Positions 3,745 to 23,195 of a stretch of DNA of 64,000 nt are shown here, piece after piece. The notes beneath the pieces were generated by a model. It was given only the letters and a program-made list of their open reading frames with translations, ran no database searches and was not told the DNA's origin. The stretch lies in the NCBI GenBank assembly GCA_043821645.1, contig JBDRCO010000081.1, positions 1-64,000 of the forward strand, read 5' to 3'. A program made the translations under genes and the position numbers. The stretch is from Pseudomonadota bacterium. Its GTDB lineage: Bacteria > Myxococcota > JACRCW01 > JAFGSX01. Positions within the stretch are counted from its first letter, which is position 1, and each line of letters opens with the position of its first letter.

Positions 3745-4157
3745 GGCAGCCTCCCTTCGACCTGGGCTGTCTTCATCTCCCCCCGGGGCGGCTCCACGTG
3801 ACAGCGGAAGCAGGTGACGTCGACGCTGGCGTAGGTATGGCAGCGATCGCAGAAGGCCTGCTTGTCGGCGTGGCAGTCCAGGCAGGTGCGGCTCAGGCTC
3901 TTGTCGTACAGGGTGCCGTCATCGCCCTTGAACGTGCGCTCGCCCTGGCGCACCACGTCGTCGCGCCAGGTGTTGAGCAGGTCCATGTGCCAGGCACGCA
4001 TGTAGGCCGTGTCCTTGACACAGGCGGTGCCCTTGACCGCCTTGGCGAGCTCTGGACGTGCGGTCGGGGCATTGGCCGCGGCCGTGTACCAGATCGGGCC
4101 GCTGATCACGGCGACGAAGGCGCCGAGTCCGATGATGACCTTTGGGGCGTCATACAT
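3741..4157 (-). CDS. dsrJ: DsrJ, triheme cytochrome c
   Basis: MRAWHMDLLNTWRDDVVR; CLDCH, CDRCH, CFRCH; ATG 4157 after a GAGGAG RBS. Confidence 0.95.
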   Translation of the reverse strand: MYDAPKVIIGLGAFVAVISGPIWYTAAANAPTARPELAKAVKGTACVKDTAYMRAWHMDLLNTWRDDVVRQGERTFKGDDGTLYDKSLSRTCLDCHADKQAFCDRCHTYASVDVTCFRCHVEPPRGEMKTAQVEGRLP

Positions 4158-4194
4158 GCTTGTTCTCCTCCTCGGTCCGGGCACCGGCAGTCGC

Positions 4195-6865: not shown

Positions 6866-7408
6866 CTACACCTCGGAGCCCTCGTTCTCGGGGGGCGGGG
6901 CATCCTCCTCGAAATAGCCTGTGCGCTTGATCAGGTTCGAGACGCGCCGCTTGACGTCGTCGATGCGCAGCTGCGCCACCTTGTCGCGATGGCGCGAGTA
7001 CAGGTCAAAGACCAAAAGCGCCATGCGGTCGACCTGGGCGTCGAGGTCTCGCAGTTCCTGCTGGAGCTCGGGCTGAACCAGCTCCACCTGCAGCACCTCG
7101 CGCAGCACATCCTTGAGCACGAAGACGAAGCCAACGGCCTGGGCGGGCGACGTGTCCTGCACCGCACGAATGCGCAGGATCTCGTCGAGACTGTGCGTGA
7201 GGTCTGTCCAGGGCTTGTTGTCCGCGAGGGCATCGACCAGGGCACGCAGCTCTCGCGCGAAGGTGTTGCCCACGGGGTTGGCGAAGGTGTTGCGCTCGCG
7301 CCGGAAGAAACCCTGGGCGTCGCCCCCGAAGCTCTGCAGCAGGCGATCCAGCCACAGCTCAGCGATGCGCTCGCGTTCCTGACCGATCAGCTTCACGACC
7401 TGCTGCAT
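6866..7408 (-). CDS. dsrT: DsrT (RsbRD N-terminal domain protein)
   Basis: FANPVG, IRAVQD, AVGFVFVLK, FDLY motifs; sits directly upstream of dsrM. Confidence 0.88.
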   Translation of the reverse strand: MQQVVKLIGQERERIAELWLDRLLQSFGGDAQGFFRRERNTFANPVGNTFARELRALVDALADNKPWTDLTHSLDEILRIRAVQDTSPAQAVGFVFVLKDVLREVLQVELVQPELQQELRDLDAQVDRMALLVFDLYSRHRDKVAQLRIDDVKRRVSNLIKRTGYFEEDAPPPENEGSEV

Positions 7409-7501
7409 GGCCACAGGCCCCTCGCGCACATCCAGCGTGGCACCGCACCATGCGGCGCCGTTGTTGACCACCTTGAGACACCGCTCAGCGCGGCGCGACG
7501 A

Positions 7502-7819
7502 TCAGACGCAGCCGGTTGGCTTGGGCAGACCTGCCACCTTGCAGGCACCCTTGGCCGGACCCGACGGGAACATCTCGTACACGTAGTTGAGCTTGAAGCC
7601 GGTTTCCTTGCACAGCTTGCGGATCATGGGCGCCACGCCGAACTTGAGATAGTAGTCCCGCAGGTACTCGACCAGCTTCCAGTGATCCTCACCCATGGCC
7701 TCGACGCCCTCGGTCTTGGCCAGGGCGACGGCGACGTCCTTGTCCCAGTTCTCGGGGTCCTGGATGAATCCGTCCTCGTCGATCTCGAGCGTGCGATCGC
7801 CAACCTTGAAATCTGGCAT
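7502..7819 (-). CDS. dsrC: DsrC sulfur carrier
   Basis: C-terminus GACKVAGLPKPTGCV keeps both conserved Cys (CX10C). Confidence 0.97.
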   Translation of the reverse strand: MPDFKVGDRTLEIDEDGFIQDPENWDKDVAVALAKTEGVEAMGEDHWKLVEYLRDYYLKFGVAPMIRKLCKETGFKLNYVYEMFPSGPAKGACKVAGLPKPTGCV

Positions 7820-7842: not shown

Positions 7843-8409
7843 TCAGTTTGCCGGTCCCTGGTTCGGTCCCGGCTCGATTTCCAACGCGACGGCGCCCTGC
7901 TGGCCCGAGGCCTTGTCCAGGGCACGTAGAAACTCCGGTGGGGGCTTGTGGCCAAGGGCCATGGCGCTCGCCAGACTGGCCCGGGCGTCGTCGACGCGGC
8001 CTTGCGCGAGCTGGCCCACGGCCAGGTAGTAGTGACCCGGGGCGCTGTCGGGTTCGCGCGTCACCACCTGCTCGAAGCAGGCCACGACCTCGTCGGCCTG
8101 TCCCAGGTAGAGGTGACCGAGGCCGAGGTTGAAGCGCGCCTGTGTCAGCTCTGGCTGCACCGCCAGGGCGCGCTGGTTGGCCTCGACCGCACCCTTGAAG
8201 TCCATCCGCGCCATGCGCACACCACCCAGGTTGACCCAGGCCTCGACACAGTGCGGATCGAGCACGAGGGCGTGCTGGAGCTCTTTCTCGGCCTCGGTGG
8301 CCGACAGCTCGAGCAGGGCGGTGCCCAGGCGCAGGTGAGCGCGCGACGATTCGGGCTGGGCCTCGACCTCGAGGCGAAGCTGCTCCACGGTTGGGCGTGC
8401 CTTAGCCAT
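7843..8409 (-). CDS. TPR-repeat protein embedded in the dsr operon
   Basis: Tandem TPR-like helices (AHLRLGTAL, AWVNLGGV, ARFNLGLG, GHYYLAVG); start overlaps the dsrN stop. Confidence 0.85.
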   Translation of the reverse strand: MAKARPTVEQLRLEVEAQPESSRAHLRLGTALLELSATEAEKELQHALVLDPHCVEAWVNLGGVRMARMDFKGAVEANQRALAVQPELTQARFNLGLGHLYLGQADEVVACFEQVVTREPDSAPGHYYLAVGQLAQGRVDDARASLASAMALGHKPPPEFLRALDKASGQQGAVALEIEPGPNQGPAN

Positions 8410-9844
8410 CTGTCGCCTCCACACCGCGCCCGTCGAGGCACGAGGAATTCTTTCGGCTCTTCGCACGCCGCGCCTGGGCGTGCGACGCCGCGAGGCGAAC
8501 CAGGGCAGGCGCCCAACCCGGCGCCCCCAGGGCGTGCAGGTGGCTGTAAGTGGCGATCACGCTGCCGACCCGCAGACCATCCCGCCCCTCACCCACGCCG
8601 GCGCCTCGGTCCAGGGCCCAGGTGGTGGGCGGCAGGGGTCCGTCGTCGACGATGCGCGTGTAGTGGAACTCGTGGCCCACCACTGGCGTGCCCAGGGCGA
8701 AGGTGGGATTGAAGCCGTCGACCCGAGCTTGCACGTAGCCATGCCCCTGGGGCTTGCGGCACATCTCGATGTCCACGGGCAGCGCTCCGACCATCGAGTG
8801 CCGGGTGCCGTCGACGATCAGAGTGCGCGCCAGGTACACCAGGCCGCCGCATTCGGCGTACACCGGCAGTCCGCGCTCGATGGCGTGGTGCAGGGCGGCG
8901 CGCAGGGACGCGTTGGCGGCGAGCTCGGCGGCATACACTTCTGGAAAACCACCACCGGCGTAGATCGCGTCGACCTCGGGGAGCGTGGCATCGGCCAGGG
9001 GGGAGATCTCCACCAGCTCGGCGCCAGCTTGCTCGAGGGCCTCGAGGTTCTCGGGATAGTAGAAGCTGAAGGCGCGGTCGCGCAGCACGCCGATGCGCAG
9101 GTGTGCTGCGGGACGCTGGGCCTGGGCATCGTCGACCCTGGGCAGGGGACGCGCCCCCCGGGCCACGGCGAGCACGGCGTCAAGGTCGACATGCTGCTCG
9201 CAGATATCGGCCAGGCGCTCCAGCACCTGCTCGGCCCGGGCGTGCTCGGCCGCAGGCACCAGACCCAGGTGGCGATCGGGCAGGTCCACGTCGAGCTTCG
9301 GCAGGCATCCCAGTACGGGGAGCCCGACGCTGGCCGCGATGGCGTCGCGTATGACCTGCTGCTGGCGGCCTGTCCCCACGCGGTTCAGGATCACCCCGGC
9401 CAGGGGCAGGTCCGGGTCCAGAGCCTTGCAGCCGAGCACCAGGGCCGCGACAGTCCGCGTCACCTTGGTGGCGTCGACCACCAGGATCACCGGCGCTGCG
9501 ATCAGATGCGCCAGGGAAGCGGTGGAGTGCGTACCCTCGGCGTCGAACCCGTCGAACAGTCCGCGATTACCCTCGATGACGGCGATGTCCGCCTGATCCA
9601 GCCCCCGCTGCAGCGAGCAGCGGATGGCCAGCTCGGGTTGCATCAGGGTGTCGAGGTTGCGGCCGGGCTGACCTGCGGCGTGGCCAAGCCAGGCCGCGTC
9701 GATGAAGTCCGGACCCTTCTTGAACGGAGCCACGCAAAGACCACGACGGCGCAGCGCCCGCGCCAGGCCAAAGGACACCAGGCTCTTGCCGGTGTCGCCG
9801 CCCAGCCCGGCGATGATCATGCGCGCCTGTGGTCTCGCGGTCAC
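8402..9844 (-). CDS. dsrN: DsrN siroheme amidase (CbiA/CobB family)
   Basis: GDTGKS, FKKGPDFID, EGNRGLFDG, YAECGG, GHEFHY; GTG start after GAGGAGGAG. Confidence 0.92.
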   Translation of the reverse strand: MTARPQARMIIAGLGGDTGKSLVSFGLARALRRRGLCVAPFKKGPDFIDAAWLGHAAGQPGRNLDTLMQPELAIRCSLQRGLDQADIAVIEGNRGLFDGFDAEGTHSTASLAHLIAAPVILVVDATKVTRTVAALVLGCKALDPDLPLAGVILNRVGTGRQQQVIRDAIAASVGLPVLGCLPKLDVDLPDRHLGLVPAAEHARAEQVLERLADICEQHVDLDAVLAVARGARPLPRVDDAQAQRPAAHLRIGVLRDRAFSFYYPENLEALEQAGAELVEISPLADATLPEVDAIYAGGGFPEVYAAELAANASLRAALHHAIERGLPVYAECGGLVYLARTLIVDGTRHSMVGALPVDIEMCRKPQGHGYVQARVDGFNPTFALGTPVVGHEFHYTRIVDDGPLPPTTWALDRGAGVGEGRDGLRVGSVIATYSHLHALGAPGWAPALVRLAASHAQARRAKSRKNSSCLDGRGVEATDG

Positions 9845-9863
9845 GCTGCGCTCCTCCTCGTCG

Positions 9864-11552
9864 TCACGCCATGTCCAAAAAGCCGCAGGGGCATTCTTCT
9901 GCGCACTTCTTGCAGCCGTCGCAGGTGTCGAGGTTGACCTTGTAGTAGTGGCCGGGCTCGACCTCGGTGGCGTCGATCTTCTTGAAACACGAGGGCGTGC
10001 AGTACATCCAGCAGCGCTCGCAGTTGAAGCACTGGCCACAGCTGAAGCAGCGGTCCACCTCGGCCATGAACTGCTCGCTGGACAGCGTCATCATGATCTC
10101 GTCGTCGGGCTTGCTGAGCCATTCGTCGACGGGACGGTGGGTCTTCTCGACCGCGGCCTTGGGCTCGTAGAAATCCAGCTTGATGCGCTCGATGGGGATG
10201 GGCGGGCGCCGATCCACCGGCTTCTCGATGTGACGCAGCATGTGGTGCACGGCCAGGGCTGCCTGGCGCCCGTGGCCCACCGCCGTCGTCGCGATGCCGA
10301 GGTCCAGGGCGTCACCGCCGGTCCACAGCTTGTCCCGGCCCTCGACCTTCATGTCACCGTCGACCTTGAGCCAGCGCTCGGTGGGGCCCAGCTCGCTGAT
10401 GCCATCAAAGTCCGGCTCCTGCGAGATGGCGGCGATGAGGGTGTCGATGGGAATCTTGTAGTTGCTGCCCTCGATGGGCACGGGGCGGCGACGACCCGAG
10501 CTGTCGGGTTCGCCGAGCTCCATCTTCTGCACCTCGATGGCCTCGAGCTTGTCGCCGCTGCGGTGCACCGCGATGGGCGCGATGAGCAGCTCGAGCTTGA
10601 TGCCCTCTTTCAGGGCGTCCTCGACCTCGCTATCGATCGCGGGCATCTCGACGCGGGTGCGGCGGTACAGGATGGTGACGTCGGCGCCGGTGCGGCGTGC
10701 CATGCGCGCGGCGTCGATGGCGGTGTCACCGCCGCCGATGATCGCCACGCTCTTGCCCACGTCGACCTTCTCGCCGGCGTTGACGCGGTACAGGTAGCCG
10801 GTACCCGTCCACACCCCCGGGCCGTCCTCGCCGGGCACGCGCATGAGCTTGCCCTTGTCGGCGCCGATGCCGAGGAACAGGAACTGGTGCTTCTTCTTCA
10901 ATTCGTCGACGGAGATGTCGGTGCCGACGCGGCAGTTGAGCTTGAGCTCGACGCCCAGGTCGACGATGCGGTCGACTTCCTTTTGCAGCACGTCGGCGGG
11001 CAGGCGGTAGAAGGGGATGCCCCAGTAAAGCATGCCGCCAGCCTTGGGAGTCTTCTCGTACACGGTGACCGGGTAACCGCGGCGCGCCAGCTGATAGGCG
11101 AAGCTCAAACCGGCGGGGCCCGCGCCGATGACGCCGATGGACTCGGACTGCCGGGTCTCGTCGAGCTTCTTCAGCTTGAGACCCTGGTTCATGCCGAAAT
11201 CGCCGATGAAGCGCTCGATGGCATTGATGCCCACCGCGCTGTCCTTGTGCGTGCGGTTGCACTCCGACTCGCAGGGATGCGGACAGATGCGACCCATGGA
11301 CGACGGGAAGGGATTGGTCTCGACATACAGTTCCCAGGCCTTCTGCAGCGCCTGATCGTCGCTGAGTCCTGTCTTCTTGGCCTGGGACACGACCGTGATG
11401 AAGCCGCGCACGTCATTGCCGCTGGGGCACTTGCCCATGCAGGGTGCGAGCTTCTCGACCTGGTTGGGTCGCGCCGACGACACGCCGCCACCGGCGCCGC
11501 CACGACTCACGATCTTGAAAGGCTTCTTGTCGGTTTTTTTCAGCAGACCCAT
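9864..11552 (-). CDS. dsrL: DsrL Fe-S flavoprotein, probably the NADP(H)-type DsrL-2 class
   Basis: N-terminal CPHPCESECNR; GAGPAG; GGGDTAID..YRR; C-terminal CFSCGQCFNCERCWMYC and CDGCKKCAEECPCG; 562 aa; directly after dsrD. Confidence 0.92.
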   Translation of the reverse strand: MGLLKKTDKKPFKIVSRGGAGGGVSSARPNQVEKLAPCMGKCPSGNDVRGFITVVSQAKKTGLSDDQALQKAWELYVETNPFPSSMGRICPHPCESECNRTHKDSAVGINAIERFIGDFGMNQGLKLKKLDETRQSESIGVIGAGPAGLSFAYQLARRGYPVTVYEKTPKAGGMLYWGIPFYRLPADVLQKEVDRIVDLGVELKLNCRVGTDISVDELKKKHQFLFLGIGADKGKLMRVPGEDGPGVWTGTGYLYRVNAGEKVDVGKSVAIIGGGDTAIDAARMARRTGADVTILYRRTRVEMPAIDSEVEDALKEGIKLELLIAPIAVHRSGDKLEAIEVQKMELGEPDSSGRRRPVPIEGSNYKIPIDTLIAAISQEPDFDGISELGPTERWLKVDGDMKVEGRDKLWTGGDALDLGIATTAVGHGRQAALAVHHMLRHIEKPVDRRPPIPIERIKLDFYEPKAAVEKTHRPVDEWLSKPDDEIMMTLSSEQFMAEVDRCFSCGQCFNCERCWMYCTPSCFKKIDATEVEPGHYYKVNLDTCDGCKKCAEECPCGFLDMA

Positions 11553-11674: not shown

Positions 11675-11914
11675 TCACGCCGGAGCGTCAGGGTTGAGCA
11701 CGATGAAGCTGCCACCCACGTACGAGTACGTGCACTTGCCGCTGTCGATGATCTCGCGAATGGCCAGCTTGCACAGGGGCTTGTCACAGCCCTCGCCAAA
11801 CTTCTCGATCATCGCCTTGGTCAGGTCGGTGGCCTTGAGGTTCTTCTTGCCGTGATTCTCCTTGACCAGAGCGTACATGGCGCTGGCCACGGTCTCGACA
11901 GAGACGTCTGACAT
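11675..11914 (-). CDS. dsrD: DsrD, divergent type
   Basis: 79 aa directly after dsrB; winged-helix-like pattern KLAIREIIDSGKCTYSYVGGSFI. Confidence 0.82.
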   Translation of the reverse strand: MSDVSVETVASAMYALVKENHGKKNLKATDLTKAMIEKFGEGCDKPLCKLAIREIIDSGKCTYSYVGGSFIVLNPDAPA

Positions 11915-11923
11915 GATCGCTCC

Positions 11924-13009
11924 TTAAGCGTGACGCAGCTGCGCCAAGCGCTTGAAGGTCTCACCCGCGTGGGTGAAGTCGTCGATGTGATACTTGGTGA
12001 ACTCGATGCCGGTCAGCTCGAAGAACTTGGGCCAGCCGATGCGCTCGATGAACTCGCCCATGCGCTCGAACTTGTGGGCATTGGCTGCATACACGTCGAC
12101 GATGTTGCGAACCGCCGCCACCACCTCGGGCCAGCGCGGTGGATTGTTGGGCAGGAAGGGGATGGCCAGCTTGGAGAACATGGGCTCCGAGCGGGCATTG
12201 CTCACCTTGCCGCCAACCCAGATCGACACGCCGTCGGTGACGGGGTCGTTGAGCGTCATCGCCGGGCACACGGTGTAGCAGTTCGCGCAGTACATGCACT
12301 GGTCCTCGACCACCTCGACCGACGGGTGTCCGTCGACGGTCTTGGTGCGGATCGCGCCTGTCGGGCAGGCCGCGATGGTGGTCGGGAGCTCGCACATCTT
12401 GCCGATGCCCTGGTGGTTGATCTTGGGCAGCTTGCGGTGCACGCCGAGCAGGGCGATGTCCGAGCAGTGCACGGCGCCGCACATGTTGAGGCAACACGCG
12501 AAGGCGATGCGCAGCTTGCCGGGCAGGCTCTTCTCGTTGAAGTACGGGAACAGATCGTCCATCACGGACTTGACCACGCCCGAGGCGTCCGACGCTGCGG
12601 AGTGGCAGTGCACCCAGCCCTGGGTGTGCACGATGTTGGTCAGGTGGGTGCCGGTGCCGCCCACCGGGTAGCCCTCCTTGGTCAGGGTATCGATCAACGG
12701 CTGGATGTTCTTCTCGTCGGTGACCAGGAACTCGACGTTGTTGCGGCTGGTCCAGCGCAGGTGACCTGCGCAGTACTTCTCGGCAATGTCCGCGAACAGG
12801 CGGATGGTCTTGGTGCTGGCCAGACGTGCCGTGGCCGCGCGAACGCTCCACAGCTTGTCGCCGCTCTCGCCCACGTGCAGCAGCACGCCGGCGCGCGGGT
12901 TCTCGTGGTACTTCCACTTGCCGTAGTTCTTCTTGATGATCTCGGGCAGAAATTGCTCGAAGTGCGGCGGGCCGATGTCGGTGACGCGCTTCGTGGGGGT
13001 CTCAACCAT
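11924..13009 (-). CDS. dsrB: Dissimilatory sulfite reductase beta subunit
   Basis: [45 protein letters not shown]. Confidence 0.98.
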
Positions 13010-13064: not shown

Positions 13065-14258
13065 CTAGGCCTGGCCTTCCGCCTCCTCGCCCAGCTGGTA
13101 GAAGATGTAGGGGTTGGTTCGCGGATGGATGACCATCTCGGGCACCGGGCTGAGCCCGATCTGCTCGAGGAAGTTGCCCATGCCGATGCGCTGGATGAAC
13201 TCGCCCACGCGCTCGCGGCCCTTGCCGTGGTCGCTCCACAGATCCCAGATCGCCTCGGCCAGCTCCTTGATGGTGTCCGTGACCTCGGCCTCGGGGATGA
13301 AGGGCACCATCACCGACGACAGCAGCGCGCCGCCGATGATCGGAGCCTTGGCGCCGAGCAGCACGGTGGCGCCGCTCTCGGTGCCGGGGCGCAGCGCCTT
13401 GGGCATGCAGTTGATGCAGTGCATGCACTTGACGCAGTTCGAGTTGTCGATGGCGAGCTTCTTGCCGTCCCAGCTCATGCACTGGGTGGGGCAACGCTCG
13501 ACGACGTCGGTCTGGATGTCCAGGGTCTTGGCATAGTCGGTCACGGCCGCGTTGTCCTGGCGGATGGCGTCCTTCCAGGTGCCGATGATGGACATGTCCG
13601 CACGCGCCACCGAGGCCACGCAGTCGTTGGGGCAGCCGGCAAACTTGAACTTGAACTTGTACGGGAAGGCCGGCCTGTGCAGCTCGTCCTGATAGGCCTG
13701 CGTGATGTCGTAGCAGGCCTTCATGCTGTCGTAGCAGGCCCACTCGCAGCGCGACTTGCCCAGGCAGCACGACGGCGTGCGCATGTCCGAGCCCGAGCCG
13801 CCCAGGTCGAAGCCCATGGCGGTCAGCTTGGCGAAGATCGGCTCGAGGGCGTCGGTCTTGGCGCCGAGGAAGATCATGTCGCCGGTGGAGCCGTGCATGT
13901 TGGTGATACCGGAGCCGTGGGCCTCCCAGATGTCACACAGCTTGCGCAGCACATCGGCCGTGTAGTACCAGCCGGAGGGCTGGGCCACGCGGATGGTGTG
14001 GAAGTGCGCGACGTTGGGGAAATCCTCAGGCAGGTCGGTGTAGCGGCCGATCACGCCGCCGCCGTAGCCCATCACACCCACGATGCCACCGTGCTTCCAG
14101 TGGCCGATGCGCTCGTTGTACGAGCGCTCCAGCAGGCCCAGCAGGTCCTGCACCATGGGATTGTTGTCCATGGACTTTTTGAACTCGTTGACAAAGCTCG
14201 GCCAGGGGCCCTCCATGAGCTTGTCAAGCATCGGCGTTTTCCACTTCTGCTCTGCCAT
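13065..14258 (-). CDS. dsrA: Dissimilatory sulfite reductase alpha subunit
   Basis: [45 protein letters not shown] 14258 after AAGGAG. Confidence 0.98.
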
Positions 14259-14401
14259 TGCCGCTCCTTTCCGTGGGCTGGTGTGGTCGGCGTCGGCCGG
14301 CCCTGCGATCATTGTAATAACCTTTTAACTACGGGAAGTTAAAGGTTTTGACTCGCTTCTTTGAGTCGTCGGGCGGCCATATGCGCAAGGATGCTGCTAC
14401 G

Positions 14402-14446
14402 TGTCAACTGACAGAAATTTGCCTGATTCCGATAAAATTTGTTGAT
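14402..14446 (-). promoter_or_regulatory. Putative dsrA promoter: -35 TTGACA plus upstream LysR-type T-N11-A box
   Basis: Minus strand reads ATCAACAAATTTTAT (14446-14432), 24 nt, TTGACA (14407-14402); no consensus -10. Confidence 0.65.
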
Positions 14447-14524
14447 AGGTCACAGCCCCAGGAAAACGCTCGCTTCCCGCCCCTGGGCCCCCCCTGGGAG
14501 GTTCCAAAAAGAATTCCAGAGCAC

Positions 14525-14572
14525 ATCAAAAATTTTTAGAACTTGTAGACGGACCAGATTGAAGTTGATTAT
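14525..14572 (+). promoter_or_regulatory. Two further T-N11-A boxes upstream of lysR (possible autoregulation)
   Basis: ATCAAAAATTTTTAG at 14525-14539 and ATTGAAGTTGATTAT at 14558-14572. Confidence 0.5.
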
Positions 14573-14657
14573 CGTCGCGCGAACCCCAAGCGCACTCAGT
14601 GTGACCGCGCCAGGGCCATTGCATGGGCACGCGGCGGTCACGGGAACGGAGGCCAAG

Positions 14658-15590
14658 ATGGAGCTGTATCACCTACGATGCCTGCAGGCCGTGGTCGAGG
14701 AAGGCGGCTTCAAGCGCGCCACCACCCGCCTGCACGTCACCCAGCCCGCCCTGTCCTACCAGATCAAGCAGCTCGAGCAGGAACTCGGTACCTCTTTGTT
14801 TGATCGTCGCCCCGGTGGCGTCAACCCCACCGAGGCCGGCCGCGTGCTCTACATGCACGCCCGCACCATAGGCGAGGCGGTGGCCAGGGCCCAGCGCGCG
14901 GTCGAGGAGCTGGCCGAGGGCGTGGTGGGCGAGATCCGCATCGGCACCGTCAACTCCATCGGCATCTACTTCTTGCCCCAGGTGCTGTGGGACATGCAGC
15001 AGACCTATCCCTCGGCGCGGCCGCGGGTGCACTACCGCGACAGTGACGAGATCATCGACAACCTGCTGCAGAACCGCATCGACCTGGCCATGGTGGCCAA
15101 CCCGCGACCGGACCGGCGGCTGCGCCAGGAGACCATCCTGGTCGAGCGCGTGTCCCTGGTGTGCGGGCGGTCGCATCCCTTCTATCATCGCAAGTCGGTG
15201 CGCCCCAGCGAGCTCAAGGGCATCCAGTTCGTGGCCCTGAGCAAGGAGAACCCGACCGGCCAGCTGGTGGTCAAGCACCTGCACCGCCTGGGCGTGCACG
15301 TCGAGCCCGTGGTGACGACGGAGAACGTGGAGACGGTCAAGAAGATGGCCGAGGTCGGGCTGGGCGTGGCTTTCCTGCCTGACATGGTGACCCAGCAGGA
15401 GACGGGTTGCGACGGCAAGCCCGGCCGCCTGGCGCGGGTGCAGGTCGGCCCCCCCCTGACGCGGCGCATTGCCCTGATCACCTGGAAGCACTTCGAGGCG
15501 GGCCGGGCCGTGCAGGCCTTCATCGAGCTGCTCAAGTCTTTCGCCACCAACTGGCGCCCGTGCATCGAGACCAGCACCGAACTGGAATGA
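14658..15590 (+). CDS. LysR-family transcriptional regulator
   Basis: HTH FKRATTRLHVTQPALSYQIKQLEQELGTSLFDR; C-terminal VGLGVAFLP; ATG 14658 after GGAGG. Confidence 0.95.
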   Translation: MELYHLRCLQAVVEEGGFKRATTRLHVTQPALSYQIKQLEQELGTSLFDRRPGGVNPTEAGRVLYMHARTIGEAVARAQRAVEELAEGVVGEIRIGTVNSIGIYFLPQVLWDMQQTYPSARPRVHYRDSDEIIDNLLQNRIDLAMVANPRPDRRLRQETILVERVSLVCGRSHPFYHRKSVRPSELKGIQFVALSKENPTGQLVVKHLHRLGVHVEPVVTTENVETVKKMAEVGLGVAFLPDMVTQQETGCDGKPGRLARVQVGPPLTRRIALITWKHFEAGRAVQAFIELLKSFATNWRPCIETSTELE

Positions 15591-15804
15591 AGAAGGGCAA
15601 AAAGCAGCCCCGGGGCTTCGACCACTACATGTAGTGGCTGCCCTGCGACCGCAGCCCCCCCCTCGACCCCGTGCGTTAACTGAACAAGACGTGATCGCTA
15701 GAATTTCTGGTATGGAGCTGTTTTTTTAACCGACCAGCTCGCCAGATCCCCATGATTTCGGACCTGTGTGATCGTTTCTGGAAAACCTGTGGGCCTGTCT
15801 AGAC

Positions 15805-15848
15805 ATAAAGAATTTTAATCGAACACGTCCAATAAATTAAATTTGACA
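15805..15848 (+). promoter_or_regulatory. Putative aprB promoter: T-N11-A box plus -35 TTGACA
   Basis: ATAAAGAATTTTAAT (15805-15819), 23 nt, TTGACA (15843-15848); no consensus -10. Confidence 0.65.
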
Positions 15849-16024
15849 TCATGCCCCCCATCTGGGCTTCTGGCGCCCACAGAAAAGGGGTGTGATCCCT
15901 CGTGCACGGGCAGCGGGACCATCACCTGGAGCCACTCAGAGGAAGCCGCTGCAGGGAAAAACCTTGCAGGACGAGATGATAGGAACACCTGGGCAGAGGC
16001 CCCGCGGGGCCGAGGAGGTAGCTG

Positions 16025-16480
16025 ATGCCAAGTTTTGTGAACCCGGAGAAATGTGATGGGTGCAAGGCACTCGACAAGACCGCCTGCCAGTATATCTGTC
16101 CGAACAACCTGATGGTCCTCAACAAGGACCTGATGAAGGCCTACAACCAGGAGCCCGACCAGTGCTGGGAGTGCCAGTGCTGCGTCAAGATCTGCCCCCA
16201 GCAGGCCATGGACGTGCGCGGTTACGCCGACTTCATGCCCCTGGGCGCCTCGGTGGTTCCGCTCCGCTCGTCGGACAACATCATGTGGACGGTCAAGTTC
16301 CGCAATGGCCAGGTCAAGCGCTTCAAGTTCCCCATCCGCACCACTCCAGAGGGCAAGGCTGATCCGGCTGGCGGCTTCGGCACAGACGGCGACCTCAACA
16401 GCACCGCGCTGTTCAGTGAGCCCGCCTCCCTGGGTACCAAAGAAGTTGCCGCCCCCGGCACCGCCATCTGGAAGAAGTGA
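16025..16480 (+). CDS. aprB: Adenylylsulfate reductase beta subunit
   Basis: MPSFVNPEKCDGCK..CQYICP..CWECQCCVKICP..KRFKFPIRTTPEG. Confidence 0.98.
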   Translation: MPSFVNPEKCDGCKALDKTACQYICPNNLMVLNKDLMKAYNQEPDQCWECQCCVKICPQQAMDVRGYADFMPLGASVVPLRSSDNIMWTVKFRNGQVKRFKFPIRTTPEGKADPAGGFGTDGDLNSTALFSEPASLGTKEVAAPGTAIWKK

Positions 16481-16494
16481 GGAGAAACAACACC

Positions 16495-18375
16495 ATGCAG
16501 AACTTCGAAACCGTTAAAGTCGATACCGATCTCCTGATCCTCGGCGGTGGCATGGCCGCGTGCGGCGCCGCAGTCGAGGCCTCCTACTGGGCCAAGCAGA
16601 ATGGCCTCAAGGTCACCGTCGTCGACAAGGCCGCCATGGACCGCTCCGGCGCCGTGGCCATGGGCCTGTCCGCCATCAACCAGTACGTCGGTCTCAAGGA
16701 TGGCGCGAACACCATCCAGGACTACTGCAACTACGTGCGCAACGACCTCATGGGCGTGACCCGCGAGGATCAGGTCGCCAACATCGCCCGCCACGTCGAC
16801 AGCACCGTGCACCTGTTCGAGAAGTGGGGCCTGCCGATCTGGAAAGACGACAAGGGCGCCTACGTGCATGAAGGCCGCTGGCAGCTGATGATCAACGGCG
16901 AGTCCTACAAGGTGATCGTCGCCGAGGCCGCCAAGAACGCTCTGACCGCGAACGGCCACGAGTACTTCGAGCGCGTGTTCATCACCCATCCGCTGATGGA
17001 CGGTGACCGCTGCGTGGGCGCGGTGGGCTTCTCCACCCGCGAGAACAAGTTCTACGTGTTCCGCGCCAAGGCCGTGCTGGCTGCCATGGGCGGCGCCGTC
17101 GGCGTGTTCCGTCCCCGTTCCGTCGGTGAGGGCTCCGGCCGCGCCTGGTACCCGCCGTTCAACTCGGGTGCCTCGGCTTACTTCACCCTCAAGGCCGGCG
17201 CCGAGATGACCTGCCAGGAAGTGCGCTTCATCCCCGTGCGCTTCAAGGACGCTTACGGCCCGGTCGGCGCGTGGTTCCTGCTGTTCAAGTCCCGCGCCAC
17301 CAACGGCCTGGGCGAGAACTACATGGAGACCCGCAAGGACGAGCTCAACAACTGGGGCAGCTACGGCAAGGTGAAGCCGGTCCCGGCCAACCTGCGCAAC
17401 TACCTCATGCTCCTCGACGTGATGGAAGGCAAGGGCCCCATCTACATGCGCACCGAGGAAGCCATTGCCAAGAACGCCGACGAGTACAAGGACGACAAGA
17501 AGGCGTACGGCAAGAAGATGAAGGAGCTCGAGAGCGAGGCGTGGGAAGACTTCCTGGACATGACCATCTCCCAGGCCATGCTGTGGGCTGCCACCAACAC
17601 CCAGCCCGAGGAGAAGGCCTCCGAGATCGCCGCCGCCGAGCCTTACTTCATCGGCAGCCACTCGGGCGCGTCGGGCGCCTGGGTGTCCGGTCCCAAGGAC
17701 CTGGCTCCGCCAGAGTACTTCTGGGGCTATGACAACATGACGACGATCAAGGGCCTGTTCGCCGCCGGCGACGCCTCGGGCGCCAGCAGCCACAAGTTCT
17801 CCTCGGGCTCGCACGCCGAGGGCCGCATCGCTGCCAAGGCTGCGGTGCGTTACATCGTCAACGAGAAGCCCGCCCTGACCAACGTCGACAGCAATGCCAC
17901 GGCCCTCAAGGACCTCGTCCTCAAGCCGCTCAAGCTGTTCGAGGAGAGCCAGAAGAAGTCGACCCAGGCCGACGTCAACCCGGGCTACATCCGCTCGAAC
18001 CAGTTCCGCATGCGCCTGCAGAAGCTGATGGACGAGTACGCCGGTGGCGTCACCGCCCAGTTCACCACCTCGGGCAAGCAGCTCGAGAAGGCCCTGGAAC
18101 TGCTCAAGGTGCTCAACGAGGACTCCGCGTCCCTGGGCGCCAAGGACCTGCACGAGCTCATGCGCTGCTGGGAGAACTACCACCGCATGTACCAGGCCGA
18201 GGCTCACGTGCGCACCATGCTGTTCCGCGAAGAGACCCGTTGGCCGGGCTACTACTTCCGCAGCGACAAGCCCAAGATGAGCAACGACTGGAACGTGTTC
18301 GTGAACTGCGCCATGGATCCCAAGACCGAAGAGTGGAAGATGAAGAAGGTGCCGATCAAGTACCTCTTCGCGTAG
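16495..18375 (+). CDS. aprA: Adenylylsulfate reductase alpha subunit
   Basis: RSGAVAMGLSAIN, WQLMINGESYK, RFKDAYGPVGAWFL, HKFSSGSHAEGR, REETRWPGYY. Confidence 0.98.
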   Translation: MQNFETVKVDTDLLILGGGMAACGAAVEASYWAKQNGLKVTVVDKAAMDRSGAVAMGLSAINQYVGLKDGANTIQDYCNYVRNDLMGVTREDQVANIARHVDSTVHLFEKWGLPIWKDDKGAYVHEGRWQLMINGESYKVIVAEAAKNALTANGHEYFERVFITHPLMDGDRCVGAVGFSTRENKFYVFRAKAVLAAMGGAVGVFRPRSVGEGSGRAWYPPFNSGASAYFTLKAGAEMTCQEVRFIPVRFKDAYGPVGAWFLLFKSRATNGLGENYMETRKDELNNWGSYGKVKPVPANLRNYLMLLDVMEGKGPIYMRTEEAIAKNADEYKDDKKAYGKKMKELESEAWEDFLDMTISQAMLWAATNTQPEEKASEIAAAEPYFIGSHSGASGAWVSGPKDLAPPEYFWGYDNMTTIKGLFAAGDASGASSHKFSSGSHAEGRIAAKAAVRYIVNEKPALTNVDSNATALKDLVLKPLKLFEESQKKSTQADVNPGYIRSNQFRMRLQKLMDEYAGGVTAQFTTSGKQLEKALELLKVLNEDSASLGAKDLHELMRCWENYHRMYQAEAHVRTMLFREETRWPGYYFRSDKPKMSNDWNVFVNCAMDPKTEEWKMKKVPIKYLFA

Positions 18376-18394: not shown

Positions 18395-18439
18395 GCTGGC
18401 CCCGGGGCGCCCCCGTGGGCGCCCCGGGGCAGCTTTTTT
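18395..18439 (+). terminator. Intrinsic terminator-like hairpin after aprA
   Basis: Perfect 14-bp stem gccccggggcgccc-ccgt-gggcgccccggggc followed by agctttttt. Confidence 0.7.
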
Positions 18440-18450
18440 CCCGGTGGCCC

Positions 18451-18720
18451 ATGTCCCTCGAAGGTGAAAATCTCAGTTGCCCACATTGCGGGGCAACGTT
18501 GCGTCGTCTTGCCATTCCCGACGGGACAAGCTGGACCGAGCCCTACCATCTGGTGTGTTTCAATGACGACTGCGAGTACTTCGTCCGCGGCTGGACGTGG
18601 ATGGAAGAGCAGTACGCGCAGCACAAATCTTATCGCTATCGGGTCATTCCGGGCAGCGGAGAAGCCACGCCGCTGCCCGTGTGGTCCAAAGATGCCATGA
18701 AGAATTCGATCATGGATTGA
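18451..18720 (+). CDS. Small Zn-ribbon protein
   Basis: CPHCG...VCFNDDCEYFVRGW..M..SYRYR; 89 aa between aprA and qmoA. Confidence 0.8.
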   Translation: MSLEGENLSCPHCGATLRRLAIPDGTSWTEPYHLVCFNDDCEYFVRGWTWMEEQYAQHKSYRYRVIPGSGEATPLPVWSKDAMKNSIMD

Positions 18721-18761
18721 ACGGACAATCGATCGCCCAACGTTTGAACGAGAGGATCTTC

Positions 18762-19592
18762 ATGCCCGAATCGAAGCCCAGCGCCAGCCCGGTGACCCAG
18801 ATCCCCGACCTCATCAAGGACAGGCGGCAGCTTGCCGGTGACGACAGCTTCTGCTTTGGCTGCCACTCCAAGCTGCCCTGCTTCACCGACTGCTGCGCCG
18901 ACATCAACATTTTGCTGACCCCCCTCGACGTGCTGCAGCTGGCGCGCCGCGCCAACCTGACCACCGGCGCCTTCGTCCAGGCCCACACCCTGACCCCCAT
19001 CACCAAGGACATGCAGCTGCCCCTGAAGATGCTGCGCATGGGCGACGACGAGTACAAACGATGCCCCTTCGTCACCGCCGAGGGCTGTGGCGTTTACGAG
19101 GACAGGCCCTGGGCCTGCCGCATGTATCCCCTGGGCATGGGCCTGCCCCCGGCGCGCGCCGGCGAGGAGCCCGAGCCCGTGTTCTTCCTGTTCGAGGACA
19201 GCTTCTGCAAGGGCCATGGCGAGGCGAGCAGCTGGACCGTCACCAAATGGCGCGACGACCAGGGCGTGCCCGCGCGCGAGGAGATCGAGCAAGGCTTCCG
19301 CGACCTGGTGAGCCACCCCTGGTTCATCGGTGGCACCCGCCAGCTCGATCCCAAGCGCATCGAGATGTACGACATGGCCTGCTACGACCTCGATCGTTTT
19401 CGCGCCTTCATCTTCGAGTCGAGCTTCCTCAATCGCTTCGTGCTCGACGAGGCACTGGTGCAGAAGCTCGAGAGTGACGACGTGGAGCTTTTGAAGTTTG
19501 CCTTCGTGTGGCTGCGCTACGCCCTGTTCGGCGAGCCCACCATGCAGCCCCGCGCGGCCGCCATCGACGCCCGCGCCGAGGCCCGAGGCTGA
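18762..19592 (+). CDS. YkgJ-family (CxxCxxCC) cysteine-cluster protein
   Basis: FGCHSKLPCFTDCC..LTPLD..CPFV..GCGVYEDRPWACRMYPLG..CKGH. Confidence 0.88.
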   Translation: MPESKPSASPVTQIPDLIKDRRQLAGDDSFCFGCHSKLPCFTDCCADINILLTPLDVLQLARRANLTTGAFVQAHTLTPITKDMQLPLKMLRMGDDEYKRCPFVTAEGCGVYEDRPWACRMYPLGMGLPPARAGEEPEPVFFLFEDSFCKGHGEASSWTVTKWRDDQGVPAREEIEQGFRDLVSHPWFIGGTRQLDPKRIEMYDMACYDLDRFRAFIFESSFLNRFVLDEALVQKLESDDVELLKFAFVWLRYALFGEPTMQPRAAAIDARAEARG

Positions 19593-19638: not shown

Positions 19639-20883
19639 ATGTCCACATCCAAGCCCATCCTGGTGGTCGGTGCCGGCATCGCCGGTCTCACCACCGCGCT
19701 CGAGGCCGCCGAGACCGGCCGCGAGGTGATCCTGCTCGAGAGGGACCCCGCGGTGGGAGGCCGCGTGGCGCGCCTGCACAACTACTTTCCCAAGATGTGC
19801 CCGCCCTCGTGTGGCCTCGAGATCAACGTGCGCCGCCTGGAGAAGAACCCGCGCATCACCTTCCTGGGTGGGGCGCAGGTCACCGCGGCCAGCCGCACGG
19901 GCAACTGCTGGAAGGTCACCGTCACCCAGGACCCGCAGTACATCACCGCGGCCTGCACCGAGTGCGGCGACTGTGAAAAGGTCTGCACCGACACGGTGAA
20001 GGATGCCTTCAACCTGGAGCTCACCGACGCCAAGGCGGCCCGCGCCTTCAAGCCCGATCCCTTTCCGCGGCGCTTCACGCTGGACAAGGCGGCGTGCAAG
20101 GACGGTGGCCAGGCGGTCAAGGCCGCGTGCAAGGTCGGCGCGGTCAACCTGGACGCCAAGCCCACCGAGCACAGCTTCGAGGTCGGCGCGGTGGTGATGG
20201 CCACGGGCTGGCACCCCTACCCCAAGGACAAGCTGCCCGAGCTGGGCGGTGGCGTGCTCAAGGACGTCGTCGCCAATGTCGAGCTCGAGCGCATGGCCGC
20301 GCCCGCGGGCCACACCGGCGGCAAGATCCTGCGCCCCAGCGACGGACAGGCCCCCAAGCGGGTCGCCTTCGTGCAGTGCGCGGGCTCGCGCGACGTCAAC
20401 CACCTGCCCTACTGCTCGGGCGTGTGCTGCCTGGCCTCGCTCAAGCAGGCCCAGTACGTCAAGGAGCAGCTGCCCGAGGCCGAGGTGACGATGTACTACA
20501 TCGATCGCCGCACCCCGGGCCGCAACGAGGAGGTGCTGACCAAGGTCCAGGCCCTGGATGGCGTGAAGCTGGTCAAGGGCAAGGTGGGCAAGGTCGAGCT
20601 CAAGGGCAGCGCCCTTCAGCTGCGCGTCGAGGACGTCGAGAGTGGCAAGCTGATCCAAGCCGAGGCCGACCTGGTGGTGCTGGCCACCGGCATGGAGTCC
20701 AACCTCAAGGGTCTGAAGCTGCCCTTCGAGCCCAAGCTCGATGACGACGGCTTCGGCATCGACGACCCGGCGCGGGGTCTGTTCGTGGCCGGCGTGGCGC
20801 GGCGTCCCGAGGACGTGGCGGCCTGCGTGCGCGATGCCACAGGCGTTGCGGCGCGCGCGGCCGTGGCGGCGACCAGCAACTAG
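19639..20883 (+). CDS. qmoA: QmoA (HdrA-like)
   Basis: GAGIAG, YFPKMCPPSCGLEIN, QCAGSRD..LPYCSGVCCLASLKQ. Confidence 0.95.
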   Translation: MSTSKPILVVGAGIAGLTTALEAAETGREVILLERDPAVGGRVARLHNYFPKMCPPSCGLEINVRRLEKNPRITFLGGAQVTAASRTGNCWKVTVTQDPQYITAACTECGDCEKVCTDTVKDAFNLELTDAKAARAFKPDPFPRRFTLDKAACKDGGQAVKAACKVGAVNLDAKPTEHSFEVGAVVMATGWHPYPKDKLPELGGGVLKDVVANVELERMAAPAGHTGGKILRPSDGQAPKRVAFVQCAGSRDVNHLPYCSGVCCLASLKQAQYVKEQLPEAEVTMYYIDRRTPGRNEEVLTKVQALDGVKLVKGKVGKVELKGSALQLRVEDVESGKLIQAEADLVVLATGMESNLKGLKLPFEPKLDDDGFGIDDPARGLFVAGVARRPEDVAACVRDATGVAARAAVAATSN

Positions 20884-20933
20884 GAGACTGCTTTCGCCGA
20901 CGGGAGGACGCCTCCCGGGCGATGGAGATCACG

Positions 20934-23195
20934 ATGGACAAGGTTGGAGTTTTTCTGTGCACCGGCTGCGAGATCGGGGACTGCCTGGACTGCGATGCCC
21001 TGGAAGGTGTCGCCACCGAGGCCGGCGCCAAGCACTTTGCCCAGCACGCCTGCCTGTGCTCGGACGAGGGCGTGGCCACCATCAAGAGCGCCATTGACGA
21101 CGGCACCGTGGACGGCGTGATCATCGCCGCCTGCTCGCAGCGCTTCAAGACCGAGGTGTTTCGCTTTGACCCGTACAAGGCCGTGACCCAGCGCTGTGGC
21201 CTGCGCGAGCAGGTGACCTGGTCGCACCCCGCCGCCAAGAAGGGCGACGAGGAGGACGACACCCAGCAGCTGGCCGCCGACCTGGTGCGCATGTGGACCG
21301 TGCGCGTGACCAAGGAACAGCTGCCCAAGAAGCTGGACCTGCAGCTCGAGCACACCGTGCTCGTCGTCGGCGGCGGCCTCACCGGCCTCACCGCGGCCAA
21401 GGCGGCCACGGGCCTGGGGCACAAGGTCATCCTGGTCGACAAGGCGGATCACCTGGGCGGCTACCTGACCGGGGTCAAGAACGTGATCCCCGAGGCTCCG
21501 CCCTACGACAGCCTGCACCACAATCCCATCGCCGACCTGGTCAAGCAGGTTCAGGCCGACGGCAACATCCAGGTCTTCACGTCGTCGACGATCAAGGCGA
21601 CCAACGGTCAGCCCGGGCAGTTCGAGGTCACCCTGGCCACCCCGGGCGGCGACAAGCAGCTCAAGGCCGGCTCCATCGTGCAGGCCACGGGTTCCTCGCC
21701 CTACGACGCCAGCAAGCTGGGTCACCTGGGCTACGGCGCCAGCAAAGACGTCATCACCCAGGCGCAGCTCGAGAAGATGCTGCTCGAGGGCAAGCTGTTC
21801 AAGCCCTCGGACGGCACCGCACCGGGCCGCGTGCTGTTCGTGCAGTGTGCGGGCTCCCGTGACGAGAAGCACCTGCCCTACTGCTCCGGCGAGTGCTGCG
21901 GCACCTCGCTCAAGCAGATGCTGGCCGTCCACGAGCACAGCAAGGACATCGAGTGCGCCATCGTCTACCGCGACATGCGCGCTCCGGGTCAGCTCGAGCA
22001 CTTCTACAAGGCCGTGCAGGAGAAGACCCGCGGCCTGTTCACCCGCGGCGTCGTCGACAAAGTCGAAGGCAGCGGCCCGCTGAAGGTGCACGTCACCGAT
22101 AGTTTGCTCGGTGACGACGTGACCGTGGACGCCGACCTGGTGGTGCTGGCCACCGGCATGGTGCCCAACGCCGCCGATGGCGAGGCCATCCGCAAGCTGG
22201 TCGATGCCCACGGCCGCATCGTCAAGAACGAGAGCGAGACCCAGGTGGCGGCGGCCAAGGAGGAGGTCGAGCGCCTCAAGGTGCACGAGGGCACCGAGAT
22301 CCTCAACCTGGGCTATCGCCAGGGCCCGGACCTGCCGCAGCTCAAGTACGGCTTCCCGGACTCGCACTACATCTGCTTCCCCTACGAGACCCGGCGCACT
22401 GGCGTGTTCGCCGCCGGCACCGTGCGCGCGCCCATGGACACAGCCCAGGCCATCGAGGACGGCTGGGGGGCGGCCCTCAAGGCGGTGCAGGTGGTCGAGG
22501 CCGCCGAGCGCAGCGAGGCCGTGCACCCGCGCTCCGGCGACATCGGTGTGGCCGACTTCTTCTTGCAGCGCTGCACCCAGTGCAAGCGCTGCACCGAGGA
22601 GTGCCCCTTTGGCACCATCAACGAGGACGCCAAGGGCACGCCGCAGTACAACGAGCTGCGCTGCCGTCGCTGCGGCATCTGCCTGGGCGCCTGCCCCGAG
22701 CGCATCATCTCGTTCCCGGACTACGCCATCGACGGCATCTCGAGCATGGTCAAGGAGATGAGCGTGCCCGAGGACTTCGAGGAGAAGCCGCGCATCCTGG
22801 CCCTGATGTGCGAGAACGACGCCCTGCCGGCCCTCGAGGACGCCGCGGCCAAGCGCATGCAGTGGCCGCCCTGGTTCCGCATCGTGCCGGTGCGCTGCCT
22901 GGGCTCGGTCAACAACATCTGGCTCGCCGACTCGCTGTCCCGGGGCATCGACGGCGTGCTGATGTGCGGTTGCAAGCACGGCGACGACTACCAGTGCCAC
23001 TACGTCAAGGGCTCGGAGCTGGCCGAGACGCGCATGGCCAACCTGCAGGAGACCCTGGGCCGCCTGAGCCTGGAGCCCGAGCGCATTCGCATCGCGACCA
23101 TCGCTCGCAACGAAAGCGCGCGCATCGTCGAGGTGCTCAACGAGTTCAGCGAGAGCATGGAGAGCATTGGCCCCAACCCGATGAAGGGGTTCTAG
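20934..23195 (+). CDS. qmoB: QmoB (HdrA-like with MvhD domain)
   Basis: CTGCEIG, DSHYICFPYETRRTG, CTQCKRCTEECPFG, CENDA, GCKHGDDYQCHY, GPNPMKGF. Confidence 0.96.
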   Translation: MDKVGVFLCTGCEIGDCLDCDALEGVATEAGAKHFAQHACLCSDEGVATIKSAIDDGTVDGVIIAACSQRFKTEVFRFDPYKAVTQRCGLREQVTWSHPAAKKGDEEDDTQQLAADLVRMWTVRVTKEQLPKKLDLQLEHTVLVVGGGLTGLTAAKAATGLGHKVILVDKADHLGGYLTGVKNVIPEAPPYDSLHHNPIADLVKQVQADGNIQVFTSSTIKATNGQPGQFEVTLATPGGDKQLKAGSIVQATGSSPYDASKLGHLGYGASKDVITQAQLEKMLLEGKLFKPSDGTAPGRVLFVQCAGSRDEKHLPYCSGECCGTSLKQMLAVHEHSKDIECAIVYRDMRAPGQLEHFYKAVQEKTRGLFTRGVVDKVEGSGPLKVHVTDSLLGDDVTVDADLVVLATGMVPNAADGEAIRKLVDAHGRIVKNESETQVAAAKEEVERLKVHEGTEILNLGYRQGPDLPQLKYGFPDSHYICFPYETRRTGVFAAGTVRAPMDTAQAIEDGWGAALKAVQVVEAAERSEAVHPRSGDIGVADFFLQRCTQCKRCTEECPFGTINEDAKGTPQYNELRCRRCGICLGACPERIISFPDYAIDGISSMVKEMSVPEDFEEKPRILALMCENDALPALEDAAAKRMQWPPWFRIVPVRCLGSVNNIWLADSLSRGIDGVLMCGCKHGDDYQCHYVKGSELAETRMANLQETLGRLSLEPERIRIATIARNESARIVEVLNEFSESMESIGPNPMKGF

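Follow-up and report, generated by a model that had tools for sequence, protein, structure and literature searches.

The DNA studied here is a stretch of 64,000 nucleotides (nt), called the window throughout, which is contig C81 of the draft genome of an uncultured myxobacterium (7.07 Mb in 140 contigs, 94.7% complete). It carries a complete dissimilatory sulfate-reduction pathway within ~24 kb, organized as two divergent arms around a single gene for a LysR-type regulator. The gene identities in both arms were assigned by NCBIfam and Pfam profile matches. They placed lysR where an earlier reading of the sequence (the original prediction) had put it, between the divergent dsr and apr-qmo-sat arms, in the order dsrA (minus strand), lysR (plus strand), aprB (plus strand). 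Ahead of both arms we found the same module, which in the direction of transcription consists of nnATCAA-N5-TTTATC (box 1), 6 nt, AT-CAAA-TTT (box 2), and a TTGAC-type hexamer. The central genes and sites are the following.

13065-14258, minus strand: dsrA, first gene of the dsr arm (TIGR02064, 562 bits versus a cut-off of 393), with AAGGAG 6 nt upstream of its ATG.
14402-14407, minus strand: TTGACA, putative -35 of the dsrA promoter, read from the sequence.
14413-14424, minus strand: box 2 of the dsrA side (positions 25-36 of the module matrix), candidate activation site or upstream (UP)-like element.
14431-14446, minus strand: box 1 of the dsrA side, nearly palindromic, T-N11-A core, includes the originally noted 15-mer; candidate LysR recognition site.
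14525-14540, plus strand: a third site resembling box 1 (15.4 bits), located 118 nt upstream of the start of lysR; candidate autoregulatory site.
14658-15590, plus strand: lysR, 310 amino acids (aa), with HTH_1 and LysR_substrate domains.
15805-15820, plus strand: box 1 of the aprB side, which includes the originally noted 15-mer; degenerate, two mismatches from the 11-base core.
15827-15838, plus strand: box 2 of the aprB side (matrix positions 25-36), a weak match.
15843-15848, plus strand: TTGACA, putative -35 of the aprB promoter, with TG at spacer position 15.
16025-16480, plus strand: aprB (TIGR02060, 210 bits).

The near-identical promoter layout described in the original prediction is present in the sequence. 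On the dsrA side, the 15-mer at 14432-14446 (minus strand) is followed after 24 nt by TTGACA at 14407-14402, while on the aprB side, the 15-mer at 15805-15819 (plus strand) is followed after 23 nt by TTGACA at 15843-15848. With TTGACA taken as -35 to -30, box 1 extends from ~-72 to -57 and is centred at ~-65, and box 2 lies at ~-51 to -40. Thus, provided that TTGACA is the -35, a T-N11-A site lies near -65 at both promoters. The positions of boxes 1 and 2 match the textbook locations of the LysR recognition and activation sites; the conserved box 2 could also be a UP-like element. Neither promoter has a consensus -10, as noted originally, and a consensus promoter scan called neither. Both carry TG at spacer position 15, which is the extended -10 position. 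The original statement on the -10 thus holds, and the argument that the core promoters are weak is weakened by the conserved consensus -35 and the extended -10 TG. The ATAAA variant of the left half of box 1, present at the aprB site of the window, was seen again at two other loci (L004 and L019).

Of the 401 Myxococcota genomes searched, 22 carry an ortholog of this LysR (47-69% identity, E up to 1e-70), and we determined the gene order at the fetched loci by tblastn. Eleven single-copy loci have the order dsrA(-), lysR(+), aprBA(+), and one more single-copy locus ends with its contig after lysR. Five genomes carry two tandem lysR copies between dsrA and aprB, three have lysR-aprBA together and dsrA on a separate contig, and single genomes show lysR-lysR-dsrA (G162) or lysR followed by sat (G031). 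The full order occurs in families f1, f4, f15, and f26, and lysR-aprBA in f17 and f21. A wider scan, in which each of 185,579 species was represented by a single genome, yielded 53 loci, 45 of them with a LysR of at least 50% identity; the remaining eight hold distant LysR-family genes (24-32% identity). Among the 45 loci, aprB is downstream in 34, dsrA is divergent in 27, both are present in 26, and two lysR copies are found in 10. Neither aprB nor dsrA lies inside 2.5 kb in 10 of the 45. Within this group, lysR adjoins other genes of sulfur energy metabolism at four loci, namely sat in L069, qmoA/B-like flavoprotein genes in L094, and hdrC/hdrB-like and flavoprotein genes in L080 and L083. 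It is next to a CobB/CobQ-type (dsrN-like) amidase gene in L079, and the neighbors in L082 are unrelated; the neighboring open reading frames (ORFs) of L073, L092, and L068 (the G162 locus) were unnamed or left out of the name look-up.

The module was scored with a 36-nt matrix built from 32 sites of other genomes (17 from the aprB side and 15 from the dsrA side), leaving out both sites of the window, the sister genome L012, and the repeat-place loci L027, L029, L031, and L032. Its core columns hold 1.1-2.2 bits each, while the N5 and spacer columns hold 0.1-0.6 bits. Loss of the boxes from orthologous lysR-dsrA-aprB loci had been named in advance as an outcome that would speak against the original prediction. 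Instead, sites above 25 bits were present in 34/34 lysR-aprB intervals and 26/27 dsrA-lysR intervals of the 45 loci, many of them at the same places as the training sites. There were 29 distinct 36-mers above 25 bits that were absent from the training set, including those of Deferrimicrobium, Thermoanaerobaculaceae-, and Sandaracinaceae-labelled records. Outside the boxes, the intergenic DNA could not be aligned by eye. Moreover, in the three genomes with dsrA on a separate contig, dsrA retains its site (50.9, 38.1, and 37.9 bits). The geometry of the module is conserved as well, as a -35-type hexamer starts 21-23 nt after box 1 in 56 of the 73 distinct sites above 26 bits. Five further sites, scored as 18 by the script, read TGGATTGAC, in which the spacing is 22 by eye.

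The other three of the 10 loci with neither aprB nor dsrA nearby, L080, L081, and L083, hold LysR orthologs of 56-59% identity in records labelled Anaerolineales, Ignavibacteriales, or "uncultured bacterium." There, lysR comes after hypD-hypE (at a contig end in L081), and in L080 and L083 it precedes hdrC/hdrB-like and flavoprotein genes. A box lies directly behind lysR in L080 (30.9 bits) and L081 (24.1 bits), and L083 has no site above 18 bits. In the two carrier genomes of this set that were searched, dsrA was not found.

Next to its conservation, the module is specific. Among the 14.1 million positions of the window genome (both strands, 7.07 Mb), only six exceeded 20 bits with the 36-nt matrix. 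The dsrA-side module ranked first (33.6 bits) and the aprB-side module sixth (21.3 bits). Scored with box 1 alone, the dsrA site reached 26.6 bits, and only 11 positions of the genome lie above 20 bits. We considered extending the regulon to the ranks between 1 and 6 (on contigs C131, C20, C37, and C106) and rejected these candidates, which are A/T-rich and lack the box-1 core or a properly spaced TTGAC. In five other genomes (4.8-6.9 Mb), a 17-base pattern searched with up to two mismatches gave 21 matches, compared to 5 for the reversed-pattern control. All 10 matches with zero or one mismatch were the two lysR-flanking sites of each genome, while the other 11 had two mismatches. The module sites are the only good matches in the six genomes.

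Within Myxococcota, the regulator occurs together with the pathway. In this phylum, dsrA (TIGR02064) was found in 21/401 genomes, and LysR in 21/21 of these versus 1/380 dsrA-negative genomes; in the LysR searches of this phylum and of the G401 phylum, at most five candidates were scored per genome, the genome sets are samples, and related genomes do not count as independent cases. In the single dsrA-negative carrier (G031), neither dsrA nor aprA was found at 95% completeness. Two other phyla served as controls. In the phylum of G401, a record labelled Thermoanaerobaculaceae, dsrA is present in 42/401 genomes and LysR in 1/401, which is G401 itself. Among the 30 dsrA loci fetched from this phylum, LysR and sites were found only in G401, and the other 29 had no site above 20 bits. 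In the G402 phylum, dsrA is present in 76/151 genomes; LysR was found in 0 of the 30 best-scoring dsrA loci, and no site lay on the dsrA strand ahead of dsrA in the 30 loci fetched. Five sites of 21.0-27.5 bits did occur there, all in loci of 42-51% G+C, where the matrix over-scores. These comparisons support that the conserved module goes with this LysR, since it was not found ahead of dsrA at the fetched loci of two phyla that lack this LysR.

We then consider the protein. The N terminus holds a winged helix-turn-helix (PF00126, HTH_1, 79 bits, residues 4-62), and the C-terminal part a LysR substrate-binding domain (PF03466, 144 bits, residues 87-294). The AlphaFold model has a mean predicted local distance difference test score of 87 and a predicted template-modelling score of 0.66. 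A Foldseek search with it returned full-length CcmR (5y2v), OxyR (4x6g), and CbnR (1ixc), with E values of 1e-23 to 1e-26 and 20-24% identity. By its domains and its predicted full-length fold, the protein is a LysR-type transcriptional regulator. It scored under the cut-off of every curated NCBIfam model scanned. The best score was for NF040786 (162 bits versus a cut-off of 250); the CynR model gave 160 versus 277 bits and the CatM model 80 versus 580 bits. Likewise, it did not qualify as a CbbR (NF045990, 131 versus 450 bits), as an OxyR (NF008361, 107 versus 329 bits), or as CysB/Cbl (NF009327, CysB family, 75 versus 402 bits). The closest solved chains by sequence (CcpC, the cyanobacterial RuBisCO-operon regulator, OxyR, and BenM) are generic LysR-type proteins. 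The nearest solved relatives, by sequence or by fold, are all generic and gave no hint at the ligand.

A maximum likelihood tree of 49 rows, including three ordinary LysR genes of the phylum, placed every dsr/apr-linked copy in one clade (support 96/90), apart from the three ordinary genes. The window protein falls within a mainly single-copy clade (96/98). The apr-side tandem copies form one clade (100/98), outside which the dsr-side copies lie. Records with other phylum labels are nested inside the dsr/apr-linked clade, which is consistent with joint transfer of the regulator and the island. The cysteines C8, C169, C251, and C302 are conserved in 14/14 aligned single-copy proteins; C169, C251, and C302 are missing from the apr-side tandem copies. 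Tandem lysR pairs between dsrA and aprB were observed at L021-L026, L055, L072, L074, L084, L087-L089, L095, and L097, mostly in Anaeromyxobacteraceae-labelled records. At tandem-lysR loci, box 2 also differs between the dsrA-side and aprB-side promoters.

Because the two arms are preceded by the same module, in the window as well as in dozens of related genomes, the LysR is probably a dedicated switch of the pathway. We assign a probability of about 0.75 to the reading that it is the dedicated local regulator of the sulfate-reduction supercluster, binding and controlling both promoters. According to this model, a LysR tetramer would bind box 1 (ATCAA-N5-TTTATC, with its T-N11-A core), centred at ~-65, and would also touch box 2 (AT-CAAA-TTT) at ~-51 to -40, abutting the -35 TTGACA. 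Binding of the same protein at the dsrA and aprB promoters would co-regulate the two divergent arms, that is, dsrAB...C...MKJOP and aprBA, with qmoABC-sat probably reached through read-through from aprBA. LysR would probably control its own gene too. That the effector is a sulfur oxyanion or adenosine 5'-phosphosulfate (APS), as suggested originally, is a guess.

Several observations weigh against this model. The consensus -35 is conserved, and TG occurs at spacer position 15 in 14/60 promoters, including both of the window; the dsrA and aprB core promoters may need no activator. The A/T-rich box 2 occupies a position typical of UP elements. The aprB site of the window is weak, both as a module (21.3 bits) and as box 1 alone (16.0 bits, exceeded by 33 positions of the genome). 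The dsrA-side interval of L085 has no site above 25 bits, and in five dsrA promoters (L037-L041, which are the same places as L004, L013, L016, L018, and L019), the module lies ~26-30 nt farther upstream. G162 has degenerate sites only, scoring 14.2 bits at dsrA and 16.7 bits at aprB. In that genome, aprB is ~32 kb away, and both sites retain the right half of box 1 and its spacing to TTGAC. The matrix is not an unbiased discovery because the pattern used to collect its training sites was centered on the originally noted box; neither the genome-wide ranks nor the control phyla depend on this collection. In addition, the genomes are related to one another and the module travels as a unit, so that linkage could account for part of the co-occurrence of gene and motif. 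The hairpin after aprA makes the inclusion of qmo-sat, and with it control of the whole pathway as originally predicted, tentative. Last, four public RNA runs gave only contigs below 100 nt with 90-99% likeness, which correspond to conserved parts of dsrA and aprBA from other organisms; no contig covered lysR or the intergenic DNA.

Given binding and control, effector-dependent activation is the most likely sign, and we lean modestly toward it because the candidate sites are positioned upstream of the -35. The strongest competing explanation is that LysR binds the boxes and acts mainly as a repressor or brake on intrinsically strong promoters, with the effector lifting repression. The retention of TTGACA or TTGACN at nearly all sites agrees with such a brake, as does the TG at spacer position 15 in the same 14 promoters, and many LysR-type proteins repress in the absence of the inducer. 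However, the sites lie upstream of the -35 and overlap neither the -35, the -10, nor the start, a placement that is usual for activation, and the -10 hexamers are poor enough to be missed by the consensus scan. We therefore regard a mainly repressing LysR as unlikely, though as a serious competitor.

According to a second alternative, the module is promoter architecture (a UP element) or the site of another factor, co-inherited with a LysR that regulates only itself or something else. The A/T-rich box 2, at ~-51 to -40 in UP-element territory, would suit this explanation, and an island inherited or transferred as a block could yield the co-occurrence through linkage alone. On the other hand, the nearly palindromic box 1, whose N5 center is free and whose T-N11-A core lies at ~-65, follows the LysR-type pattern, and it extends past the usual range of UP elements. 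Furthermore, the module was not found at the fetched dsrA loci of the two phyla without this LysR, it is retained at dsrA genes that are not linked to lysR, and LysR orthologs outside the island (L069 and L080) still have an adjoining box. Together, these points make a site foreign to LysR improbable. Least probable is that a single island spread horizontally in recent times and that the boxes are alike through leftover identity, with no selection acting on the motif: records of different phylum labels do nest within the LysR tree, and three records (L075, L076, and L077) have identical sites, but the LysR proteins differ by 31-53% and DsrA by 25-35%, the flanking intergenic DNA is unalignable by eye with spacer columns nearly devoid of information, and the same module occurs at two different promoters per genome.

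With regard to lysR itself, two more T-N11-A boxes had been reported ahead of the gene. Plain T-N11-A occurs at the chance rate in the two intergenic regions of the window (24 versus 19.9 expected and 18 versus 20.4 expected), and this criterion alone is therefore without meaning there. One box-1-like site (14525-14540) does stand out: a scan of the window genome with the box-1 matrix gave only 55 positions above 14 bits, compared to 15.4 bits for this site. Thus, the claim held for a single box and lapsed for plain T-N11-A matches. By eye, in the short intergenic regions of L004, L013, L016, and L019, a TAnnnn hexamer directed toward lysR comes 16-18 nt after the TTGATA half of box 1. This arrangement suggests a classical autorepression layout. 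Autoregulation is hinted at only by the layout, with lysR divergent from dsrA in 27/45 loci, and by the third box.

Concerning the extent of the regulated units, the remaining genes of the two arms, named by their NCBIfam and Pfam matches, and the hairpin after aprA are as follows.

1583-2740, minus strand: dsrP, distal end of the dsr arm.
2971-3744, minus strand: dsrO.
3741-4184, minus strand: dsrJ.
Within 4195-6087, minus strand: dsrK.
About 6100-6800, minus strand: dsrM.
6866-7471, minus strand: dsrT-like gene (RsbRD_N).
7502-7819, minus strand: dsrC.
7843-8466, minus strand: TPR gene.
Within 8402-10039, minus strand: dsrN.
9864-11552, minus strand: dsrL-like gene (GltD/DsrL-like flavoprotein).
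11675-11914, minus strand: 79-aa ORF at the position expected for DsrD, between dsrB and the dsrL-like gene.
11924-13009, minus strand: dsrB.
Within 16477-18375, plus strand: aprA (TIGR02061, 871 bits).
18399-18430, plus strand: terminator-like hairpin after aprA, 14 pairs, all G-C, with a T-run.
18597-19592, plus strand: CxxCxxCC ORF, 331 aa.
19639-20883, plus strand: qmoA.
20922-23195, plus strand: qmoB.
23269-24432, plus strand: qmoC.
24478-25674, plus strand: sat, end of the plus arm.

The dsr-arm genes between 1583 and 13009 lie on a single strand with short gaps. Consensus promoter scans of both arms detected no promoter-like site within them, and the window holds no further module site above 12 bits besides the reverse read of the aprB box. 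An ATG at 18451, 20 nt past the hairpin, begins a Cys-rich ORF of 89 aa, which runs across the annotated start of the CxxCxxCC ORF, and gene assignment at 18399-18720 is ambiguous. As the ATG is only 20 nt past the hairpin, there is no room for a promoter, and qmo-sat is therefore probably transcribed by read-through from aprBA. The hairpin may set the ratio of aprBA to qmo-sat transcript. The name DsrD was dropped for the 79-aa ORF after dsrB; the ORF had no Pfam match at E up to 10, and a PDB sequence search returned nothing meaningful, so we left it unnamed.

In genome G024, two sites were seen outside this arrangement. One (L148, on C137) scores 32.1 bits with a properly spaced TTGACA and lies ~440 nt before a gene for CdhD, the acetyl-CoA synthase delta subunit, and the other (L144, on C276) scores 39.6 bits, lies outside the island, and has no evident target. 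The regulon may extend to Wood-Ljungdahl genes, a lead from this one genome.

Some further elements were noted in the intergenic DNA. An 11-12-bp inverted repeat lies at 14319-14347, in the presumed dsrA 5' leader, and a small G+C hairpin at 15998-16011, immediately 5' of the aprB Shine-Dalgarno. Stems of at least 5 bp were present in 19 of 35 distinct aprB leaders versus 484 of 1750 shuffles, and RNAalifold run on the leaders gave no consensus structure. An Rfam search of 14100-16200 at E up to 1 gave no match. The sole consensus-type promoter call of the region was TTAACT-17-TAGAAT at 15676-15704 (plus strand, 9/12), between the lysR stop and the aprB box. Just past sat, at 27152-30175, we observed an arsR-acr3 pair and a SaoE/SO_0444-like efflux gene.

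The closest known systems are local LysR-type regulators with a divergent target, such as CbbR/CcmR, CbnR, and BenM/CatM. They share with the window LysR a winged-helix N terminus and a two-lobed effector domain, as well as a T-N11-A site at ~-65, a second element by the -35, a divergent putative target, and a layout that suggests autoregulation. In contrast to these systems, the putative targets here are dissimilatory sulfate-reduction genes, and the module stands at two promoters, one on each side of the regulator gene. Control of sulfate activation and reduction genes by LysR-type proteins that read sulfur metabolites is also known from enterobacterial CysB and Cbl, whose effectors are N-acetylserine and thiosulfate or sulfide, with APS for Cbl. 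This provides a precedent for the idea of APS or an oxyanion as effector. However, the CysB/Cbl pathway is assimilatory while the window targets are respiratory, and the window LysR is not a member of the CysB family because it scores 75 bits versus a cut-off of 402. The selenium metabolism-associated LysR regulators (NF040786), which are the best full-length match, have a different gene neighborhood. Transcriptional control of a sulfate-respiration gene has likewise been described in Desulfovibrio vulgaris Hildenborough, where, in the consulted part of PMC7531388 (citing Christensen et al. 2015), Rex is reported to repress sat. Rex is a global NADH/NAD+ repressor of another family, whereas the window LysR is encoded inside the cluster that it would regulate.

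As for the literature on these lineages, the consulted part of PMC10591310 reports a complete Dsr pathway, including dsrD and dsrL-2, in Myxococcota genomes, and neither "LysR" nor "transcriptional regulator" was found in it. "LysR" was not found in the consulted part of PMC6018796, and in that of bioRxiv 10.1101/2021.07.06.451402 it occurs only within a family count. The original prediction had held that no such regulon was described, and full-text searches and the consulted parts of these papers, supplements and subscription journals aside, agree with it in revealing no link between LysR and dsr or apr. The LysR-dsr/apr regulon is probably undescribed so far.

A broader and considerably more tentative proposal is that this LysR clade forms a horizontally portable on/off switch that makes sulfate reduction facultative. 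Such a switch would travel with its two operators and the dsr-apr island over at least four phylum labels (Myxococcota, Acidobacteriota, Deferrimicrobiota, and Chloroflexota/Ignavibacteriota-labelled) and might sense a pathway metabolite (sulfite, APS, or thiosulfate), or sulfide or redox state via the three cysteines of the effector domain. We consider this doubtful as it stands; if it is true, the presence of LysR would mark organisms that respire sulfate only on demand.

In kind, the regulator is a classical local one of the LysR type; what is new is its probable target, the respiratory sulfate-reduction island of uncultured lineages, together with a defined operator at both arms. Transcriptional control of dsr, apr, qmo, and sat is poorly understood, the known inputs in model organisms are global, such as Rex, and the sulfate or sulfite reducers newly found beyond the classical groups have not been cultured. 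The presence of one regulator gene, with a defined operator ahead of both arms in dozens of genomes, makes a concrete and cheap experiment possible, and the promoter-regulator pairs are a possible handle for expressing or reporting the pathway in heterologous hosts. For versatile bacteria with large genomes, such as Anaeromyxobacteraceae, the gene would serve as a genomic marker of sulfate respiration that is regulated and probably facultative, and the pattern described here suggests that the island spreads together with its own control circuit.

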